DNA from: Oscillatoria sp. FACHB-1406
GTDB lineage: Bacteria; Cyanobacteriota; Cyanobacteriia; Cyanobacteriales; Spirulinaceae
Assembly: GCF_014698145.1 (NCBI RefSeq)
Contig: NZ_JACJSM010000001.1
Location: 88,633-152,632, forward strand
Direction: 5' to 3'
DNA: 64,000 bases
Positions 8,727 through 32,067 of this stretch are shown here, in pieces. The notes under the pieces are model-generated. The model did not search any database. It was given only the letters and a program-made list of their open reading frames with translations, and was not told the origin of the DNA. Numbering within the stretch: the first letter of the stretch is position 1; each line of letters opens with the position of its first letter. The translations under genes and the position numbers were made by a program.

Positions 8727-10916
8727 ATGGAATTTTTCGAGAGCGAAAGGTTTAGCGAGATTGTTAGTCGGTGTAAGCATAGCGCGATCGGTAAGCATTT
8801 AGCCAGCGCTCTCTACGTTCATGTAAGCGCCCTTCCCGCGATCGATTTATGCTTGCAGGATTACGAAAAACTCGCTCGCAGCGCTACTGAAGGAGTGCCT
8901 AGCGCTACTCTAGTTAAATTTAACCTCGAGAAACCGACGCTCTCTTATCTTTTTTATCCTGACTTCGATCGCGATCCGCATCCCGCCCTACACGCCAGCA
9001 TTCAAGTCAATTTATTAACTTTAACGGCAACCAGGCGAGATTACAGCACTGTATCCAATTCTCCCATTTTGCATCGCAAAGAAACTTTTGTTTTACCCGA
9101 TTATCCTCACTACGCTCAATTTGCAGAACTGACACGCCAGGAAGAAGCATTAGGATTGCTTGCCAACGCTCGTTTTATTGGCACGCGCCGTCAATGGTTG
9201 CAACGGTTAGCCTTTCATGAAGTCGAAATTATCGACCATCAAGTTATTCAAAATTCAAAATCAACAGATCGAAATGAACAAGATATAGAAGTCATTCAAA
9301 ATTTAATTGTTGAAATTCAAAGCGATCTAGAAGATAGAAGGGAAATTCAAAATGAGGGAATTATAGAAGAAAAAGTCGAACCTTCTGTTACTCTTATTGT
9401 ACCGCCGGTTGAAATTGCGCGCCATCGAGCAGCAATTGCGCGCAAACAGTTATCGCGTCCGACGCGAGTTGTACTAGAAGCGGGATTGTTTGAAGAAGGA
9501 ACGACGTTTTTTGATTATGGATGTGGGTACGGTTGGGATTGCGATCGCATCGCCGAACAAGGCTATACTAGCTCCGGCTGGGATCCCTACTATCGCCCCA
9601 ACGTACCGAAAGTTGCGGCAGATATCGTTAATTTAAGCTACATTATCAACGTTATTGAAGACCCAAGCGAACGTAGAGAAGCGTTAATTAATGCTTGGGA
9701 ATTAACCCAAAAAGTGTTAGTAGTCGCCGCGCAAGTTCTCATCCAAGATTCGTTTAGCGGACAAATTGCCTATGGCGATGGAATTATCACGCGGCGCAAT
9801 ACTTTTCAGAAATATTACGAACAGGAAGAACTAAAATTTTATATCGATCGCGTCCTCGAAGTCGATGCAATTCCGGTGGAGTTAGGGATTTACTTTGTCT
9901 TTCGCGATGCGACGCAAGCGGAAGCTTTTCGCGCTTCCCGATTTCGTTCCCGCGCGACAACACCGCGCATTCGCAAACAAGTCCGTCGCTTTGAAGACTA
10001 CGAAGTCATGCTAGCCCCGCTGATGGCGTTTGTAACGGAACGAGGACGATTGCCGGTTAAAGGGGAATTAATACAAGAAGCGGAGATTTGGCGCGAATTT
10101 GGCAGCCATCGCCGCGCTTTTGATTTAGTGTTGCAAGCGACAGAGGAATCGGAATGGAGCGCGATCGCAGAAAAACGCCGCCAAGACCTTAAAGTTTATT
10201 TAGCGCTTTCTCATTTTGGCAAGCGTCCGAAAGCGAGCGAACTCTCGCCACCCGTAAAAGAAGATTTCAAAGCGTTATTTGGCAGTTACAAACAAGCCTG
10301 TTTGCTTGCAGATTTAATGTTATTTAGCCTTGGCGACTTGCAAAACATTACCGATATTTGTCGAACGAGTCCGGTGGGTAAAAAATTAACAAAAAGTTTT
10401 ACCGTTCATTTCAGCGCTTTAGAAACGCTTGACCCACTTTTGCGGTTGTATGAAGGCTGCGCCAGTCGCACTTTTGGGCGTTTAGAATCAGTGACATTAG
10501 TTAGATTCCATCTCGATCGCCCGCAAATTTCCTACTTATTTTATCCCGATTTCGATCGCGACCCTCATCCCGCCCTAACAACCAGTATGCACGTTGCGCT
10601 CCAAGACCTCCAAGTTTTTTACCAAGAGTACGACGAAGACAATCCGCCCCTCCTCCATGAAAAAGATTTATTCGTTCTGCCCGACTACCCCAACGCCGAA
10701 AAATTCGCAAAATTAACCCAACAAGAGAAAGATTGGGGTTTGCTGGATGACTATCGCGCCATTCGATCGCGTCGCGGCTGGTTGAAGTGTTTGGAAGACC
10801 ATTCTGCGATTCTAAAAAATCACCAATTAACGCGCTGTAAAGATGCCGACCCGTATAAATTAAAACTGTTGCGTGCAGCCGTTAGAACTCGTCAAAAAAA
10901 GCGAAGCCAAACCTAA
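8727..10916 (+). CDS. large class-I SAM-dependent methyltransferase-like protein with an internally duplicated ~100-aa flanking domain; possibly related to the 'DNA phosphorothioation-associated putative methyltransferase' family
   Basis: 729 aa. A central Rossmann MTase core carries motif I FFDYGCGYGWD, post-I SSGWDPYY and motif II ADIVNLSYIINVIED. Residues ~60-165 (LVKFNLEKPTLSYLFYPDFDRDPHPAL...HRKETFVLPDYPHYAQFAELTRQEEALGLL...RRQWLQRL) are repeated at ~565-670 (LVRFHLDRPQISYLFYPDFDRDPHPAL...HEKDLFVLPDYPNAEKFAKLTQQEKDWGLL...RRGWLKCL). The family assignment rests on recollection, not a search. Confidence 0.6.
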   Translation: MEFFESERFSEIVSRCKHSAIGKHLASALYVHVSALPAIDLCLQDYEKLARSATEGVPSATLVKFNLEKPTLSYLFYPDFDRDPHPALHASIQVNLLTLTATRRDYSTVSNSPILHRKETFVLPDYPHYAQFAELTRQEEALGLLANARFIGTRRQWLQRLAFHEVEIIDHQVIQNSKSTDRNEQDIEVIQNLIVEIQSDLEDRREIQNEGIIEEKVEPSVTLIVPPVEIARHRAAIARKQLSRPTRVVLEAGLFEEGTTFFDYGCGYGWDCDRIAEQGYTSSGWDPYYRPNVPKVAADIVNLSYIINVIEDPSERREALINAWELTQKVLVVAAQVLIQDSFSGQIAYGDGIITRRNTFQKYYEQEELKFYIDRVLEVDAIPVELGIYFVFRDATQAEAFRASRFRSRATTPRIRKQVRRFEDYEVMLAPLMAFVTERGRLPVKGELIQEAEIWREFGSHRRAFDLVLQATEESEWSAIAEKRRQDLKVYLALSHFGKRPKASELSPPVKEDFKALFGSYKQACLLADLMLFSLGDLQNITDICRTSPVGKKLTKSFTVHFSALETLDPLLRLYEGCASRTFGRLESVTLVRFHLDRPQISYLFYPDFDRDPHPALTTSMHVALQDLQVFYQEYDEDNPPLLHEKDLFVLPDYPNAEKFAKLTQQEKDWGLLDDYRAIRSRRGWLKCLEDHSAILKNHQLTRCKDADPYKLKLLRAAVRTRQKKRSQT

Positions 10917-19499: not shown

Positions 19500-20030
19500 A
19501 TGGATATCAAGGAGTTTTTCGAGCAGAGTTCGGGAAAATGGTTTGCCCAACGCACGCATTACAACCTCGCTAGTCAAGCCGCAGGCAGCAGTAAAGCCGA
19601 GATTGAGATTGAGTTTTTAGCCGTTGACGCGCCTGAAATCGTTCAACTCTGCGAGCAACAGCACGTTAGTTCGGCGCAAGCTTGCGGAGGCTTAAAAATA
19701 AGTTGGGATAACTCTGTCGATTGGGGAGGGACGAAGGAAAAAGGGTTTGCTATTCTTGTTGCAGTTCCCGACTCCGAGAATCCCCAAACGGGCAAGTTTC
19801 TGCGGGGCAGCAGCAATCCTAAAGAGCAAAGTCTTGCTGGGGATTATGCGATTGGAGAGGATGAAGCCTTAACCCTGACGCTAGAAAACGGTAGCTTGCA
19901 CGCCGAAGAACGCCTGTGGTTTGCCAGTCCCAACTTGCGCTTGCGAAGCAGTTTCGTGAAAAATAACGGTCGATTTAGCGATAGTACGTTTTATTCCGAA
20001 ATTCGCAGAATGGTAGCACCGGCAACTTGA
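19500..20030 (+). CDS. cpcS: phycobilin lyase of the CpcS/CpeS (S/U-type) family
   Basis: 176 aa with CpeS-family hallmarks (EFFEQSSGKWFAQRTHYNL, ILVAVPDSENPQTGKFLRG, ERLWFASPNLRLRSSFVKNNGRFSDSTFYSEIRR). These align with CpcS-I of Synechococcus as recalled. Confidence 0.8.
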   Translation: MDIKEFFEQSSGKWFAQRTHYNLASQAAGSSKAEIEIEFLAVDAPEIVQLCEQQHVSSAQACGGLKISWDNSVDWGGTKEKGFAILVAVPDSENPQTGKFLRGSSNPKEQSLAGDYAIGEDEALTLTLENGSLHAEERLWFASPNLRLRSSFVKNNGRFSDSTFYSEIRRMVAPAT

Positions 20031-21195: not shown

Positions 21196-21368
21196 CCGCA
21201 GGAGAACGCGACCCAATCGTGCTAAATTGAACGGATCTCGTTCGGTTCGGATGGGGAGCAGCCATTCGATATTAAAGGGGAAAGTTCGGTGCAAATCCGG
21301 CGCTGTCCCGCAACTGTGAGGCATTTTTCAAAATGCTAAGTCAGGAAGCCCGCCGAAACGATTCAATT
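21196..21368 (+). promoter_or_regulatory. cobalamin (AdoCbl/B12) riboswitch in the 5' leader of hupE/ureJ
   Basis: Conserved core AAGGGGAAAGTTCGGTGCAAATCCGGCGCTGTCCCGCAACTGTGAG followed by a B12 box AGTCAGGAAGCCCGCC. Both match the cobalamin riboswitch consensus (GGTGAAAATCC...CCCGCCACTGTGA...AGYCMGGAxxCCxGCC). Confidence 0.75.
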
Positions 21369-21401
21369 TGGCTTAATTTATCAAACATCTGCGAGGTACG
21401 G

Positions 21402-22046
21402 ATGATTTTAAAAATGAAAAGTGTTTCGGGGCGCGCCATTGCGCTAGGTTTAAGTATTGGGATCTTCAGTTTAGCGATCGCGACTCAACCCGCTTTTGCC
21501 CACCATGCAATGGGCGGAAGAATGCCCGCTAACTTTTTTGAAGGGTTTATCACAGGTTTAGCGCATCCCATTATCGGTTTCGATCATTTTGCTTTTATCA
21601 TCGCAGTTGGCTTATTCGCCGCGCTTAAACCCCAAAAAGGTTGGTGGATTCCGGTTGCTTTTGTGATTGCCACATTAGGCGGTACGGGGCTGCATCTTTT
21701 GAAGTTGAATATTCCTTTTTCAGAAGCCTTTGTAGCCGCTTCAATTATTTCAGTAGGGTTACTGTTTGCTGCCAATTGCACCCCAGCGCTTGCCGGTGCG
21801 ATCGCGTTTTCCGCGCTAGCAGGAATTTTCCACGGTTATGCTTACGGCGAATCGATTGTTGGGGCGGAACCAACGCCATTAATCGCGTATTTAATGGGGT
21901 TTGCAGCGATTCAACTCGCGATCGCGTCGGGTGTTTGTTGGGGGTGGCGCGCTTTGCAAACGAAAGGTAGCTTAACTGCCAGTTCGCTGCGTTTTGTAGG
22001 TTTGATTTTCTGCGCGATCGGGGCAACTTTTTTAGCGATCGGCTAA
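21402..22046 (+). CDS. hupE: HupE/UreJ family Ni/Co transporter
   Basis: Signal peptide plus HupE signature (AFAHHAMGG...GFITGLAHPIIGFDHFAFIIAVGLFAA). The ORF-track start at 21333 overlaps the riboswitch, so the ATG at 21402 (MILKMKSV...) is preferred. Confidence 0.8.
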   Translation: MILKMKSVSGRAIALGLSIGIFSLAIATQPAFAHHAMGGRMPANFFEGFITGLAHPIIGFDHFAFIIAVGLFAALKPQKGWWIPVAFVIATLGGTGLHLLKLNIPFSEAFVAASIISVGLLFAANCTPALAGAIAFSALAGIFHGYAYGESIVGAEPTPLIAYLMGFAAIQLAIASGVCWGWRALQTKGSLTASSLRFVGLIFCAIGATFLAIG

Positions 22047-23315: not shown

Positions 23316-23565
23316 TGCGCTGAAATCGGGTTAGATAATTCGAGTGGGTAGTAGTAGATATCCTTCGATAAATTGAGTTGCAATTAGCGTCGCGGTGTCG
23401 TATATTGATAATTAGAACGTACCGTTTAACTTAAGAACTGGGTTCCTGGAAAAATTGGTTGTTCTCGCCTCTGCTCTTTTGTGTAATACAAGATATTACA
23501 GGCTGCTCAAAAAAATTTCGCGCTTCGCGCGATTGAAAAGGGCAAGAGGGGAAAAGGGGAGAGGG

Positions 23566-25428
23566 CTAGGGAATCCTGGGGGAGAGAGCAGCGCGGAACC
23601 CGATAAGGTCGTTAGAATCATCGGGATGGCCCCTGAGGCGATTCGCAGAACGGCAGAGCCCCGAATGGTTGAGCCAAGAACCACCGCGAAGCAGGCGCGT
23701 ATCCCCTTCATCGCTAGTTAGCCATATAGTTTCATTGTTGGGTGCACCTTGATAATTTTCGTGCCAATGGTCTGCGCACCATTCCCATACGTTCCCGTGC
23801 ATTTCATACAGTCCATATCCGTTCGGCGGTAATGTTCCTACTTCCACAGTTTTTTCTCGGTATTCTCCTTTCGGGTCGTTTCCGAAGCGATATCCGTAGG
23901 GATATATCCCGTAGTTGTTCACTAATGCTGACGTTATTGTTTCCCCAAAATGAAACGGCGTTGTTGTTCCAGCGCGACAGGCGTATTCCCATTCGGCTTC
24001 ACTCGGTAGTCAATACTGTTTCCCTGTTTTTTTGGACAGTCTTTTACAAAATTCTTCGGCTTCCCACCAAGTTACTCGCTCTACCGGATGATTTGCTCCT
24101 TTAAAATTGGATGGGTCGGGGTTGAGGTCGTGGAGGATTTTGGGGAGGGCGGCGACGGCTTTCCATTGCGCTTGGGTAATGGCATATTTGCCCAGATAGA
24201 AGGGTTGGATTGTGACTTGATGTTGCGGACTTTCACTCTTCAATAAGGTGTGTTTGTATATTTTAGATAATCTCTCGATTTCCCTATCATCCGTCCCCAT
24301 TATAAAACTCCCGCCCGGAATCGCCACCATTTCTAACCCAACTCCCCCAGCGATTTCTTCAGTAAAATAATTGGCTTGACTGGAACTGCGGTTTTCAACA
24401 TTACCCCGATTATCGACGCTTATCACTTCAAAGCTGAAACTTCGTAGGTTGGGTGGCGACGTAACAATCCTTTTTGAAGGACTCGCTGGAGTTGTCAGTA
24501 CAACGGCTATTCCTTCCAAAGCTTGTAAGGCTTCTTTTGCCGATTGATAGCGATCGCGTGCAAAGGGTTGTAGCATCGTATCTAAGACTTCCCCAAAACG
24601 CTCATTCGCCGTTCTCGATTGCTTCTGCAACTGCTCCCGCCACTGCCAGTCCTGCGTCGATGCGTCGAAAAGGTCGTCTCTTATCGTACCGTCGAGTTGC
24701 TGTTCCGGAAAACACCCCGTCAGCAACCGCGCGCAGGTTGCCCCCAAACTATAAATATCGCTCGCTCGTACCGGCTGTCCCATTGCGTGTTCTATTGCAG
24801 CGTATCCTGGAGTAAAGATTTGCGTTCCTGGCTTTGTTAGCGTCGTTCCCGTTATCTGTTTGGCTCCCCCAAAGTCAATCAACACGAACTCTGATGCACC
24901 GGAAACAAGCGTTTTTCGCATGATGTTTTCCGGTTTAATATCTCGATGCAACACGCCATTTTCATGGATATATTGCAGCACCGGCAGCAAACTCTGCAAA
25001 AGTTGCCGCGTTTTGAATTCGCTAAAAAGACCTTGTTTAAAGCATTCTTTAAGGAGGTTGTCTCCGGCAATATATCGCTGCACTAAGTACAGCGAGTTAT
25101 CATGCTTGAAGTAGGCATACAGGCTCGGGATTTGCGGATGGTCTAATTCGTGAAGGCGCTGCGCTTCTTGCATGAAGAGTTCTGTAGCTTTGGCGAGGTT
25201 TTTTTGTTGTTGGGCAAGAAATTTTTTGATGACGCAGGGGCGATTGAGACATTTGGTGTCTTCAGCGAGGTAAGTTCTGCCGAAAGCGCCTTCTCCGAGG
25301 AGTCGAGTAACGCGATATTGATTGTGGAAGAGGTAGCTGGAGGTAAGGGGAAACCCGCAACTGCTGCAAAAGCTATGGTGGTTGGGATTGAAGGGGTTGG
25401 AACAGGCGGGGTTAAGGCAGTCCACCAT
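23566..25428 (-). pseudogene. kinase-FGE-sulfatase fusion gene interrupted by a single in-frame TGA (24010..24012); the downstream FGE half continues in the same frame to 23566
   Basis: The reading frame runs ...[50 protein letters not shown]...GGSWLNHSGLCRSANR.... Intact homologs have [12 protein letters not shown], so the stop replaces an Arg codon (CGA to TGA). Confidence 0.55.
24010..25428 (-). CDS. Ser/Thr protein kinase (N-terminal zinc ribbon plus Hanks kinase) fused to the N-terminal half of an FGE-sulfatase (SUMF1) domain; ends at an in-frame TGA
   Basis: CxxC...CxxC ribbon, kinase motifs (LGEGAFGRTY, VIKKF, HRDIKPENIM, DFG), then the FGE domain start (GLEMVAIPGGSFIMGTDD...HQVTIQPFYLGKYAITQAQW...HPVERVTWWEAEEFCKRLSKKTGKQY*). 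Confidence 0.8.
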   Translation of the reverse strand: MVDCLNPACSNPFNPNHHSFCSSCGFPLTSSYLFHNQYRVTRLLGEGAFGRTYLAEDTKCLNRPCVIKKFLAQQQKNLAKATELFMQEAQRLHELDHPQIPSLYAYFKHDNSLYLVQRYIAGDNLLKECFKQGLFSEFKTRQLLQSLLPVLQYIHENGVLHRDIKPENIMRKTLVSGASEFVLIDFGGAKQITGTTLTKPGTQIFTPGYAAIEHAMGQPVRASDIYSLGATCARLLTGCFPEQQLDGTIRDDLFDASTQDWQWREQLQKQSRTANERFGEVLDTMLQPFARDRYQSAKEALQALEGIAVVLTTPASPSKRIVTSPPNLRSFSFEVISVDNRGNVENRSSSQANYFTEEIAGGVGLEMVAIPGGSFIMGTDDREIERLSKIYKHTLLKSESPQHQVTIQPFYLGKYAITQAQWKAVAALPKILHDLNPDPSNFKGANHPVERVTWWEAEEFCKRLSKKTGKQY

Positions 25429-25519
25429 GAGGGGAGAGGGTGAGGATTTTGTTTTCTAGTTTAACCCCTGCACGGGGTTGCCTTGTTCTTCCCTCCCCCA
25501 GTTCTCGGCGCAAAATTAT

Positions 25520-25551
25520 CTGTAGAGACGTTGTATACAACGTCTCTACAG
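25520..25551. repeat. perfect 32-bp palindrome CTGTAGAGACGTTGTA|TACAACGTCTCTACAG, equal to two abutted terminal inverted repeats of the MITE-like element at 29828..30064
   Basis: Exact palindrome. Its half-site is identical to the left TIR of the 237-bp element at 29828. Confidence 0.7.
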
Positions 25552-25571
25552 GCGATTTGTTCTTTCTTAAG

Positions 25572-28718: not shown

Positions 28719-28790
28719 GCCGATGTAGCTCAGTGGTAGAGCACTCGATTCGTAATCGAGCGGTCGTGAGTTCAAATCTCATCATCGGCT
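28719..28790 (+). tRNA. tRNA-Thr (anticodon CGU)
   Basis: GCCGATGTAGCTCAGTGGTAGAGCACTCGATTCGTAATCGAGCGGTCGTGAGTTCAAATCTCATCATCGGCT folds as a cloverleaf with a 7-bp acceptor stem GCCGATG/CATCGGC, D-loop AGCTCAGTGGTAGAGC and T-arm GTGAGTTCAAATCTCAT. The anticodon loop is TTCGTAA. No CCA is encoded. Confidence 0.9.
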
Positions 28791-28896
28791 TGAACTTAAA
28801 TGAACCAATCCTCTTTCAAGTAATTTTATGCTACGATAGATTATGTCAGCATTGACATGACTCCTCAATAAAGTTAATTCTTATGTTTAACTTTAA

Positions 28897-29244
28897 ATGA
28901 AAAAATCTCAAAAGCCAGACAAACTACTTGTCTGGCTTGAGGGTGAAGTAAAAACGCCTCCCTTTTCAGCTGCTGCCCGCATTGAAGCAGGACAATTGTT
29001 AAGAAGATTGCAGCAAGGAGAAATCTTGACCATGCCTTCTTCTCGACCCATGCCAATGATCGGTACTCACTGTTATGAATTGCGGATAGGCGATAGCGAA
29101 GCTGGTAAGCAATGGCGAATAATTTATCGTATTGACTTTGATGCAATTGTTATCGCCGATGTTTTCCAAAAGACAACACAAAAAACACCAAAGCGAGCAA
29201 TTGATAACAGTAAACGACGACTCAAGTTATACGACGAAATTTAA
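28897..29244 (+). CDS. higB: type II toxin, HigB/Gp49-like (RelE/ParE superfamily)
   Basis: 115 aa. CYELRI...WRIIYRID...IVIADVFQKTTQKTPKRAIDNSKRRLKLY matches the Gp49/HigB family pattern (...FQKKS...TPK.EI....RRLK). Confidence 0.7.
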   Translation: MKKSQKPDKLLVWLEGEVKTPPFSAAARIEAGQLLRRLQQGEILTMPSSRPMPMIGTHCYELRIGDSEAGKQWRIIYRIDFDAIVIADVFQKTTQKTPKRAIDNSKRRLKLYDEI

Positions 29245-29272
29245 GAATCATTATCAATTTAGCTGAATAGAG

Positions 29273-29626
29273 TTGGATTTTTATAAGATTCGATCGAGGT
29301 TATTAACTATGGATATATTAAAGCGTCAACGCTTAGAAGCAGCGGGTTGGAAAGTCGGAAATACTGAAGATTTTCTCGAATTATCCCCCCAAGAAGTTGA
29401 TTTTATAGAATTAAAACTCTCTCTTAGCAAGCATTTACGAGAATTACGATTGAATCAAAATCTTTCTCAAGAAAGATTAGCGAAAAAAATAAAATCCAGC
29501 CAGTCAAGAGTTGCTAAAATGGAGTCAGGAGACCCTTCCGTGTCTTTTGACTTAATCGTGCGAACACTGCTGGCGATGGGAGCAACTTATCAGGATTTAG
29601 CAACGGCGATCGCATCTTGCGAGTAG
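29273..29626 (+). CDS. higA: HTH XRE-family antitoxin (HigA-like)
   Basis: It lies immediately downstream of higB. HTH region LRELRLNQNLSQERLAKKIKSSQSRVAKMESGD. The true start may be the ATG at 29309 (MDILKRQRL...). Confidence 0.65.
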   Translation: MDFYKIRSRLLTMDILKRQRLEAAGWKVGNTEDFLELSPQEVDFIELKLSLSKHLRELRLNQNLSQERLAKKIKSSQSRVAKMESGDPSVSFDLIVRTLLAMGATYQDLATAIASCE

Positions 29627-30102: not shown

Positions 30103-32067
30103 TTATTCTGCTGTAGAAACTTTCCCATCCCCCGTTACCGCCGTCGAGAAAGTGTGTCCGCCCGCTTCTACTTTTAACGTTCCTACCTTCCAGCCCAAGG
30201 AAACAATCGACGGCCCGGAAACGACGCGATAGAGATCGAAATGCTGCAACCAATCGTAAACTTCGCCGTTACGTTCAATAATAGGAAGTTGTTCGAGAGC
30301 GCGCCAAGTTAAATTAAGGGTATTGCTATCACTCCCTTTTAACCCCACCGTTCCTTCCTTTAAACGAGCAAGATTTAACTCTCCCTTACGCTTCACCGCT
30401 TCCTTAAAACGAGCGTAATCATTCCCCTCTACGAGATCGCCCGTTTCTAACGCAAAACCGGCTAGTTCTTGACCCTTTGGGGTGGCTTTTATCCATCGTT
30501 CTGCCCCGTAACCGCGCGTCGCTTTCTTTTCCGGTATGGGAACGTCTGTATAATCATTAAGTTGAATCGGACGAATCGCGATCGCAACTTTTTCTAATCG
30601 CACAAACCAAATTCCCTCTTCAATCTCCATCTTCGCTGTTTTCGGCAGTTGAAAAAAGAACGGTCGGTTGGCCGGACGCAACCAAATTAAGAGATTGCGG
30701 AACTGTCCGATTTGGTCGCCCGGATTTTTCCCCGGTTTCACGCCTTCCTCGCCCGTATTGGCAACAAAAAAGTCAACGCCGCGCTGAGAATTATTGGCCA
30801 TGATTTTAAATGGCCCGACATCGCCATCGGCAAACCCAGAAACAACGCTGCCCATTTGATACGTCCGCCCGAAAAACTGAGTTTCCCAATACGCCGGTTT
30901 ATCCTCCCCGTCCTGCTTCCAATTTTCATAAATTGGTTTCGTCGCCATCATCTCGACGGGTTGCTTGAATTGCTTTCGCGCCAAGGCAACGACAGCTAAG
31001 GGCGGTCGGTAGCGACTGGTAATCATGTAGAGGGTATCGAGTTCGGGTTCGGGGTTGGGCTGGGGAACATCGCCGAAGTAGAGGTCGAAGGTACGCGCCG
31101 CAGAAGAACCGTAAACGACGTTAGCACCGCCGTAATCGCGTTTTGTCGGCCCGCCCCAACCGCCGCGACGATATTTAAGGGCAGCAGCGGTTGACATCCA
31201 ATCTAAGGCGGCTTTGGCGATCGCTTTGACTTCGGAGTCTTTGGCGAAGTCGTAGAGGTTGAGGTAGGGGGCAAAGGTGTGACTGTGGTAGTTTTCTGAG
31301 TCCCATTCGCCCATCCCGATGTGGTATAGCGCCCAAACGTAACGCTGGATTTTTTGCTTGTAGAGTTGGCGGACGGCTTCGTTTCCGGTTTCTTCTGCCA
31401 TGAGGTAAACGGAGGTTTCACGCATGGCGCGCAGGTTATCGGTGTTGCGCCCGTCTACCCACAATCCGCGCCGCTGAATCGACCAGTCTTGTCCGCTGCC
31501 ATCACCGTTTCCGTAAAGGGGATGGGGACGTTCGAGGGGGTCGCGTTCCGTCCATTTTTTGGCACCGTCAAACATTCGTTGTTTGTAGGCGGGGTTGAGG
31601 AAGGAACCGAAGAGGAAGTATTTGCGAATTTGACCTTTGAGGGTGAAGGAGAAGTAGTAGTCAATGCCGTCGGTGTGGGCGTGTTCTGGGGTTTGGGAGT
31701 CTTCTTGTTGGAGAAAGGCGATCGCGCGTTCTTTATTTCCGGCGAGAAAGTCGAACATAGCGCGAGGATAAGATCGTTTCTCGTTTTCTTGGGTCGTGTT
31801 CCCATAGGTTTTGGGGTTGCTGTAAAGCTGGATAATGGCAAGCGCGCGCTGCTCGAATTCGGCTTCGAGTTCCGGAGTCCAAGGGTTTTGCAGTTTTTGT
31901 GGAATGTCGGCCGGTTGGAGATTGAGAAAAGGCCCGCGATCGGAGGGACGCGGGACGATAGCAGCCGAATTTGGGGAAGAAGGGGAGAAATTGGGAGCTA
32001 TGCAACCGCAAAGCGCGATCGCGAGTGCAATGGCTGTATTCTGAATTCTTAATGTCAGCTTCCTCAT
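30103..32067 (-). CDS. large secreted hypothetical protein, probable lipoprotein (654 aa); possible polysaccharide-acting enzyme-like fold
   Basis: N-terminal signal peptide ending ...IALAIALCGC (lipobox-like), Trp/Tyr-rich body and no confident domain. Confidence 0.55.
   Translation of the reverse strand: MRKLTLRIQNTAIALAIALCGCIAPNFSPSSPNSAAIVPRPSDRGPFLNLQPADIPQKLQNPWTPELEAEFEQRALAIIQLYSNPKTYGNTTQENEKRSYPRAMFDFLAGNKERAIAFLQQEDSQTPEHAHTDGIDYYFSFTLKGQIRKYFLFGSFLNPAYKQRMFDGAKKWTERDPLERPHPLYGNGDGSGQDWSIQRRGLWVDGRNTDNLRAMRETSVYLMAEETGNEAVRQLYKQKIQRYVWALYHIGMGEWDSENYHSHTFAPYLNLYDFAKDSEVKAIAKAALDWMSTAAALKYRRGGWGGPTKRDYGGANVVYGSSAARTFDLYFGDVPQPNPEPELDTLYMITSRYRPPLAVVALARKQFKQPVEMMATKPIYENWKQDGEDKPAYWETQFFGRTYQMGSVVSGFADGDVGPFKIMANNSQRGVDFFVANTGEEGVKPGKNPGDQIGQFRNLLIWLRPANRPFFFQLPKTAKMEIEEGIWFVRLEKVAIAIRPIQLNDYTDVPIPEKKATRGYGAERWIKATPKGQELAGFALETGDLVEGNDYARFKEAVKRKGELNLARLKEGTVGLKGSDSNTLNLTWRALEQLPIIERNGEVYDWLQHFDLYRVVSGPSIVSLGWKVGTLKVEAGGHTFSTAVTGDGKVSTAE

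Follow-up and report, generated by a model that had tools for sequence, protein, structure and literature searches.

An in-frame TGA codon in a kinase-lectin fusion gene of Oscillatoria sp. FACHB-1406: a probable recent nonsense mutation

The interrupted gene and its stop site

This analysis concerns a gene of the cyanobacterium Oscillatoria sp. FACHB-1406 which encodes a Ser/Thr kinase fused to an FGE-sulfatase/C-type lectin (CLec) domain (FGE, formylglycine-generating enzyme) and whose reading frame is interrupted by a TGA codon. The gene lies on the minus strand of a 64-kb stretch of DNA (contig NZ_JACJSM010000001.1, positions 88,633 to 152,632), called the window below, and all coordinates are given in the numbering of this window. 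The locus comprises the following open reading frame (ORF), domains and elements, among them a segment similar to the variable region (VR) of targets of diversity-generating retroelements (DGRs), in which a template repeat (TR) serves as the counterpart of the VR.

24013..25428, minus strand: upstream ORF of 472 codons with a Cys-rich N-terminal motif (MVDCLNPAC…CSSCG), kinase, linker and partial FGE-sulfatase/CLec domain
about 25317..24523, minus strand: Ser/Thr kinase domain, residues 38-302 (Pfam, 134.7 bits)
from about 24333, minus strand: first 107 residues of the FGE-sulfatase/CLec domain (Pfam, 58.5 bits)
24010..24012, minus strand: in-frame TGA, codon 473, with C as the next base (TGA-C) and CTA as the next codon; Arg in homologs
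23569..24009, minus strand: rest of the FGE-sulfatase/CLec domain, 147 stop-free codons (Pfam, 117.6 bits)
23566..23568, minus strand: TAG, the original stop of the full-length 620-codon gene (ORF listing, translation)
23593..23685, minus strand: DGR-type variable-region-like segment GGSWLNHSGLCRSANRLRGHPDDSNDLIGFR (comparison with the paralog P0005 and verified TRs)
23518..23565, minus strand: 3' flank with pyrimidine-rich spacer CCCTCTCCCCTTTTCCCCTCTTGCCCTTTTC, hairpin TCGCGC-GAA-GCGCGA (23532..23518) and T-run (alignment with VR flanks)

The interrupted gene starts with the ATG at 25428, and the upstream ORF ends with the residues EEFCKRLSKKTGKQY (…KKTGKQY) directly before the TGA. The frame is unchanged past this codon and runs through 147 codons (…GGSWLN…GFRAALSPRIP) to the TAG; the chance of such a run without a stop is about (61/64)^147, by simple arithmetic roughly 1e-3. 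The Pkinase domain (Pfam PF00069) covers profile positions 1-259 of 263, and a GxGxxG-like loop, VIKK, HRDIKPEN and DFG are visible in the translation. The stop divides the Pfam FGE-sulfatase domain precisely: profile positions 4-110 are found before it and 112-254 after it, so that position 111 is the site of the stop. The 117.6-bit match identifies the stretch 3' of the stop as real coding sequence. Both domains of the fusions named by NCBI as bifunctional serine/threonine-protein kinase/formylglycine-generating enzyme family protein are thus present, but the ORF that joins them is not continuous.

The position occupied by the TGA encodes Arg in most relatives. In the best 120 homologous proteins the motif LP[ST]E[AS][EQ]WE occurs 121 times and is preceded by R in 111 cases, by S in four, by C in four and by Y and Q in one each. 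In cyanobacterial DNA (79 loci) the same codon specifies Arg in 81 of 84 cases and is then always CGN (CGA 24, CGC 22, CGG 20, CGT 15). None of these 84 motif occurrences across the 79 genomic loci has a stop at the Arg position, and no stop was aligned to the TGA position in a tblastn search over 162 loci. In-domain stops were detected in the latter search in only two other copies, both elsewhere in the domain, and one of these copies resembles a template repeat rather than a gene. Since the stop has no counterpart at this site in homologs, the TGA is not a conserved recoding site.

To judge from the codons used by relatives, a single C-to-T transition from CGA to TGA most likely explains the stop. 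Changes of AGA to TGA or of TGY to TGA would also take a single step, but they fit the family less well and are less likely. CGA makes up 8 of the 35 Arg codons of the interrupted gene and 16 % of the Arg codons in 18 window genes. The initial annotation of this DNA had reported an in-frame TGA with continuation in the same frame, Arg in homologs at this point and the sufficiency of one CGA-to-TGA change. The ORF listing, the translation and the split Pfam domain agree on the first point, the protein motifs and DNA cases counted above bear out the second, and the third is in keeping with CGA being the commonest of the 84 homologous codons.

A separate feature of codon usage was observed along the whole kinase-lectin gene (23569..25428), in which AGA and AGG together constitute 9 of 35 Arg codons, whereas in 18 other genes of the window they account for 23 of 415. 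This atypical usage hints that the gene family may have had a different evolutionary history or may be mobile.

When Arg was restored at codon 473, the FGE-sulfatase domain (PF03781) was matched at 191.4 bits over profile positions 4-254 of 255 and Pkinase at 133.8 bits. Nine intact homologs gave 176-199 and 119-147 bits, respectively, so the repaired domains score like those of intact genes and there is no secondary decay. An intact paralog, P0005 (MBD2576239, 643 aa), is encoded on the same 602-kb contig outside the window and carries an Arg-region peptide identical to that flanking the stop. Identity between the two is 49 % for the kinase; for the lectin domain it is 76.6 % on the 5' side of the stop and 79.6 % on the 3' side. 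As identity is as high after the stop as before, constraint downstream has not been relaxed, and the lesion must have arisen very recently, unless it is not real. The sole terminator-like hairpin 3' of the gene on this strand (23532..23518) is placed after the full-length frame and not after the premature stop. No other broken gene was found in the 64 kb by a scan for same-frame ORF pairs and Pfam annotation of about 50 ORFs, and about 55 further window genes appear to be intact.

The window gene and the paralog also share long identical stretches, and the differences between them cluster in the variable region and one loop. The contrast between lectin-domain and kinase identity suggests that domain-level gene conversion or partial duplication may have taken place.

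No match to the exact DNA pattern around the stop was found in GTDB genomes. When GTDB genomes and JGI metagenomes were scanned with the protein as guide, only paralog-level relatives and no ortholog appeared, the identities reaching at most about 59 % over the full domain and 64 % in a partial fragment (L134). Protein-database searches with the full-length sequence and with its C-terminal 318 aa returned nothing above 64 %, and the best full-length match was the same-genome paralog (57 %); no protein or locus closer than this paralog was present in the collections searched. In the metagenomic locus L161 (JGI 3300081958), which comes from a more distant relative and where the MenA protein is 79 % identical to that encoded next to the window gene and no DNA match is seen, an unrelated 377-aa gene stands beside menA in the place where the kinase gene would be. 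The kinase gene is therefore a lineage-specific paralog and not a conserved syntenic gene.

The C-terminal domain and its variable-region-like segment

The best match of the C-terminal domain among solved structures was PvdO (PDB 5HHA, E = 3e-37), and human FGE was matched with E = 3e-26. The domain thus belongs to the fold family of human SUMF1 (PDB 1Y1E/2AFT) and non-catalytic PvdO, and in the alignment the Arg of GK-R-LPTEAEWEY in human FGE is the counterpart of the interrupted residue. We take this Arg to be Arg224, on the assumption that the human crystal chain starts at residue 86. The first catalytic Cys of FGE is replaced by Asn in the window gene (GGSWLNHSGLC against GGSYMCHRSYC in the alignment to 8aru/5ssy; human C336 and C341), with Cys in human GGSYMCH corresponding to Asn in GGSWLNH. 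The pair of active-site Cys residues of a catalytic, SUMF1-type FGE is therefore incomplete, and the domain is a non-catalytic FGE-fold (C-type lectin) module, for which a binding role rather than formylglycine generation would be expected by analogy with PvdO and TvpA. The kinase-FGE fusion proposed in the initial annotation holds as far as domain homology is concerned, but the identification as a formylglycine-generating enzyme has to be given up, since one catalytic Cys is gone and the domain resembles a DGR-type C-type-lectin variable domain.

TvpA of Treponema denticola (PDB 2Y3C) is a DGR variable protein whose CLec fold is of the FGE type. Its sequence matches the window domain over the C-terminal half (E = 6e-22), and its variable residues are situated at the C-terminal end of the fold (PMC5758913). 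Unlike the window gene, TvpA lacks a kinase domain and has a known cognate DGR. The cyanobacterial kinase-CLec variable proteins have the same architecture as the window gene, with a Hanks-type kinase at the N-terminus and an FGE-sulfatase/CLec domain at the C-terminus, and occur as several paralogs per genome, as do the window gene and P0005. Among the DGR targets and target paralogs of cyanobacteria such proteins are the most frequent, and they often lie at remote loci (Vallota-Eastman et al. 2020, PMC7517822; PMC5758913); they constitute category 'b12' of Wu et al. 2018 (PMC5758913).

The last 31 residues encoded by the window gene (23685..23593) fit the scaffold GGSW......CRSA.R....P......GFR. 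The last 41 residues contain 14 differences from the paralog P0005, of which 13 fall in the VR-like segment. The differing codons are NNY in 13 of 14 cases, in comparison to a background of 48 %, and the residues at differing positions are all NNY-encodable (28/28, background 79 %). Verified TRs of the family encode GGSWNNNPxNCRSAxRNxNxPDNRNNNIGFR, and it is at their Asn/adenine positions that the window gene and P0005 differ. In verified TR/VR pairs of relatives, mismatches were located at TR adenines in 14/15 cases for L036, 19/19 for L048, 13/13 for L072, and 17/17 and 18/19 for the two pairs of L123. Comparison of the VR-like segment with 15 foreign TRs gave mismatch rates of 52-64 % at TR adenines and 18-34 % at other bases (each P < 0.05, the comparisons being non-independent).

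The 3' flank of the gene consists of the TAG, a pyrimidine-rich CCCT/CTCTTGCCCTTTT spacer, the hairpin GCGCG-AA-GCGCG and a T-run, and it aligns with eight verified VR flanks; the hairpin stem is identical to that of L114. Two characters of DGR targets are thus found at the locus, namely NNY/adenine-type variation at the 3' end of a CLec fold and a VR end like the initiation of mutagenic homing (IMH) site followed by a GC hairpin, the function of these elements being putative. The hairpin with its T-run could also serve as an intrinsic terminator.

TR/VR pairs of DGRs were observed in the loci L036, L048, L056, L072, L093, L098, L113, L114, L116, L119, L123, L138, L151 and L156, with 9-19 mismatches, nearly all at TR adenines. 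Several of these loci have two or three VRs per TR, and all share the conserved 3' flank motif TAGCCCTTTAC.CTCTTGCCCT.TTGC and the hairpin GCGCG-NA-GCGCG.

The VR-like segment is not repeated within the 64-kb window, so there is no template repeat there, and no reverse transcriptase was found in Pfam scans of the window ORFs. The window gene differs in this respect from DGR kinase-CLec targets, as it does in the stop that precedes its VR-like segment by 108 codons. A remote-target arrangement of the kind common in cyanobacteria (PMC7517822) is possible. On the grounds of its sequence, the window gene is assigned to the large DGR-diversified kinase-CLec family of cyanobacteria, with the VR-like segment and the 3' cis-elements as putative parts of a current DGR target.

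DGR mutagenesis was considered as the cause of the stop and rejected. The retroelement cannot account for a TGA at such a distance from the VR-like segment, given that DGR codon design avoids stops, and the 81 homologous Arg codons are all CGN, none of them AGA.

Flanking genes and other features of the window

Exact protein look-ups identified the following products encoded around the kinase-lectin gene, as well as isochorismate synthase MBD2576162 and RF1 MBD2576169.

19500..20030: CpeS-type lyase MBD2576157
22359..23315: ABC permease MBD2576160
25572..26486: MenA MBD2576161

The locus is flanked by the permease and MenA, whose accessions are consecutive. The MenA encoded in the window shows 100 % identity to the Oscillatoria sp. 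FACHB-1406 protein from a contig of 602,367 bp. The 472-aa product, the 118-aa downstream ORF and the 620-aa repaired versions (R, W or C at 473) were all absent from the protein collection in exact look-ups. It follows from the consecutive accessions and the absent products that the depositors' annotation included no protein for this locus.

Between menA and the kinase gene, at 25519..25552, a near-perfect palindromic hairpin of 14-15 bp (CTGTAGAGACGTTGTATACAACGTCTCTACAG) was noted, which is terminator-like on both strands. Further away, a cobalamin riboswitch (21226..21371, plus strand, 58.2 bits) is located directly 5' of an ORF for a HupE/UreJ-family membrane protein (21333..22046, plus strand) and overlaps the start of the longest ORF. 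The true start of this ORF is probably further downstream, because its 237-aa product is absent from the protein collection; the arrangement suggests a B12-regulated gene, possibly for a cobalt or nickel transporter. The region 28719..29626 (plus strand) contains a gene for tRNA-Thr (CGT) followed by a Gp49-like (HigB-type) and HTH_3 (HigA-type) gene pair, which, by its domains and its place beside a tRNA gene, looks like a toxin-antitoxin module. Two long ORFs, 8727..10916 (plus strand, 729 aa) and 30103..32067 (minus strand, 654 aa), had no Pfam match at E <= 1e-3.

Origin and meaning of the stop codon

The interruption is best explained, in our judgement with good probability, by a recent CGA-to-TGA nonsense mutation that inactivated one dispensable DGR-type kinase-lectin paralog. 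One substitution, likely from CGA (Arg) to TGA, would have turned codon 473 of the 620-codon kinase-CLec gene into a stop. Translation would then cover the kinase and the linker but only about 42 % of the lectin domain, and the product would be deprived of the entire ligand-binding half, including the hypervariable C-terminal region. The locus would accordingly be a pseudogene or, in the best case, a gene that has been truncated. Since an intact paralog is present on the same contig, loss of the interrupted copy should be tolerated. We infer a real and recent change, an ancestral CGA codon and a non-functional product. Ordinary nonsense pseudogenes (the 'internal stop' class of NCBI PGAP) likewise show one in-frame stop where a sense codon is conserved, an intact remainder and no deposited protein, and the only contrast is that the lesion in the window is so recent that a second one is absent. 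Of the options offered by the initial annotation, a recent nonsense mutation leading to a pseudogene is the one best supported, by the undegraded remainder, the missing protein entry and the absence of the stop from homologs.

Several observations weigh against this explanation. The complete lack of decay is as compatible with a base error as with a mutation of very recent date. The best non-self homolog is about 54-57 % identical, and the short sister-species Logan contigs SRR21279718 (L162) and SRR33871097 (L080), with 92-93 % DNA identity, both end before the locus. To judge from the accession numbering, the locus was presumably called a pseudogene in the deposited annotation. UGA followed by C is reportedly the weakest terminator context in E. 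coli (Poole et al. 1995), and such a context might let some full-length protein form.

The only serious rival, although we regard it as unlikely, is a sequencing or assembly error, in which case the true codon would be CGA or another sense codon and the gene would encode an intact 620-aa kinase-CLec protein. But for one base the gene is indistinguishable from its intact homologs, its identity to the paralog is equal on either side of the stop, and it is the sole interrupted gene seen in the window. The site, however, lies outside homopolymers and repeats, and the 602-kb contig together with the absence of other broken window genes argues for a good consensus. As a matter of general judgement, dispensable paralogs also carry real nonsense alleles far more often than a consensus contains substitution errors. 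It is improbable that the truncated 472-aa protein is itself functional, as a selected, perhaps deregulated kinase freed of its sensor domain, with the downstream part heading to decay. The kinase domain is complete with its motifs, and the CLec domain has been proposed to be possibly autoinhibitory (PMC7517822), but 107 residues of an incomplete fold would stay attached, which is an unlikely boundary for a designed protein. None of about 240 homologs listed ends at this point, and the lack of downstream decay leaves no time for selection on the new state.

Production of the full-length protein by programmed UGA recoding, either as read-through or by insertion of selenocysteine, is hardly credible. 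The presence of Cys in 4 of 121 homologs is what would be expected of a Sec/Cys pair, and UGA-C followed by CUA forms a context prone to leakage in both E. coli and eukaryotes. A stretch of 111 nt that surrounds the UGA and extends downstream of it, however, folds no better than shuffled sequences (z = +0.52), an Rfam scan of 23450..24250 gave no family, including the selenocysteine insertion sequence (SECIS), even at E <= 10, and no homologous locus has a stop at the site. A selenoprotein was rejected on the lack of a SECIS hairpin and of structure beyond shuffles and on the nature of the conserved residue, which is Arg and not Cys. Programmed read-through, the third option of the initial annotation, was likewise discarded for want of a recoding signal, of downstream structure and of a conserved stop. 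Near-cognate read-through would moreover insert Trp, and R224W and R224Q are listed as disease variants in multiple sulfatase deficiency at the equivalent Arg224 (PMC10037891), so that Trp at codon 473 is unlikely to be harmless. Low-level unprogrammed leakage, most likely with insertion of Trp, is possible, but would not be a designed feature. An alternative genetic code was ruled out: among 64 long window ORFs the stops are TAA in 39, TAG in 18 and TGA in 7, and those closed by TGA include MenA and CpeS at their NCBI-annotated lengths. Re-initiation for a separate C-terminal protein was also dismissed, as the in-frame starts GTG 23922, GTG 23847 and ATG 23802 would give products of at most 118 aa, under half a domain.

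It is very doubtful that the interrupted copy is maintained as a silent cassette within a DGR system or can be re-activated by reversion or by read-through at UGA-C. Such a cassette would retain the intact VR, the IMH-like end and the homing hairpin and could thus receive mutagenised cDNA, and the stretches identical to MBD2576239 would allow donation of VR variants by gene conversion. If true, this would add an on/off, stored-variant layer to DGR diversification.

With a recent nonsense mutation as the preferred explanation, the finding has little import beyond annotation; the feature is an ordinary one, to which only its character as a DGR target adds something of value. We recommend annotating the locus as a pseudogene of the kinase-CLec variable-protein family, or else as a gene of this family that may contain a base error; a sulfatase-maturation enzyme is not an appropriate label. 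The genome of Oscillatoria sp. FACHB-1406 harbours target genes of DGR type whose homing cis-elements are conserved, and one copy, probably caught right after its inactivation, would provide a small data point on turnover in a fast-evolving sensor family.

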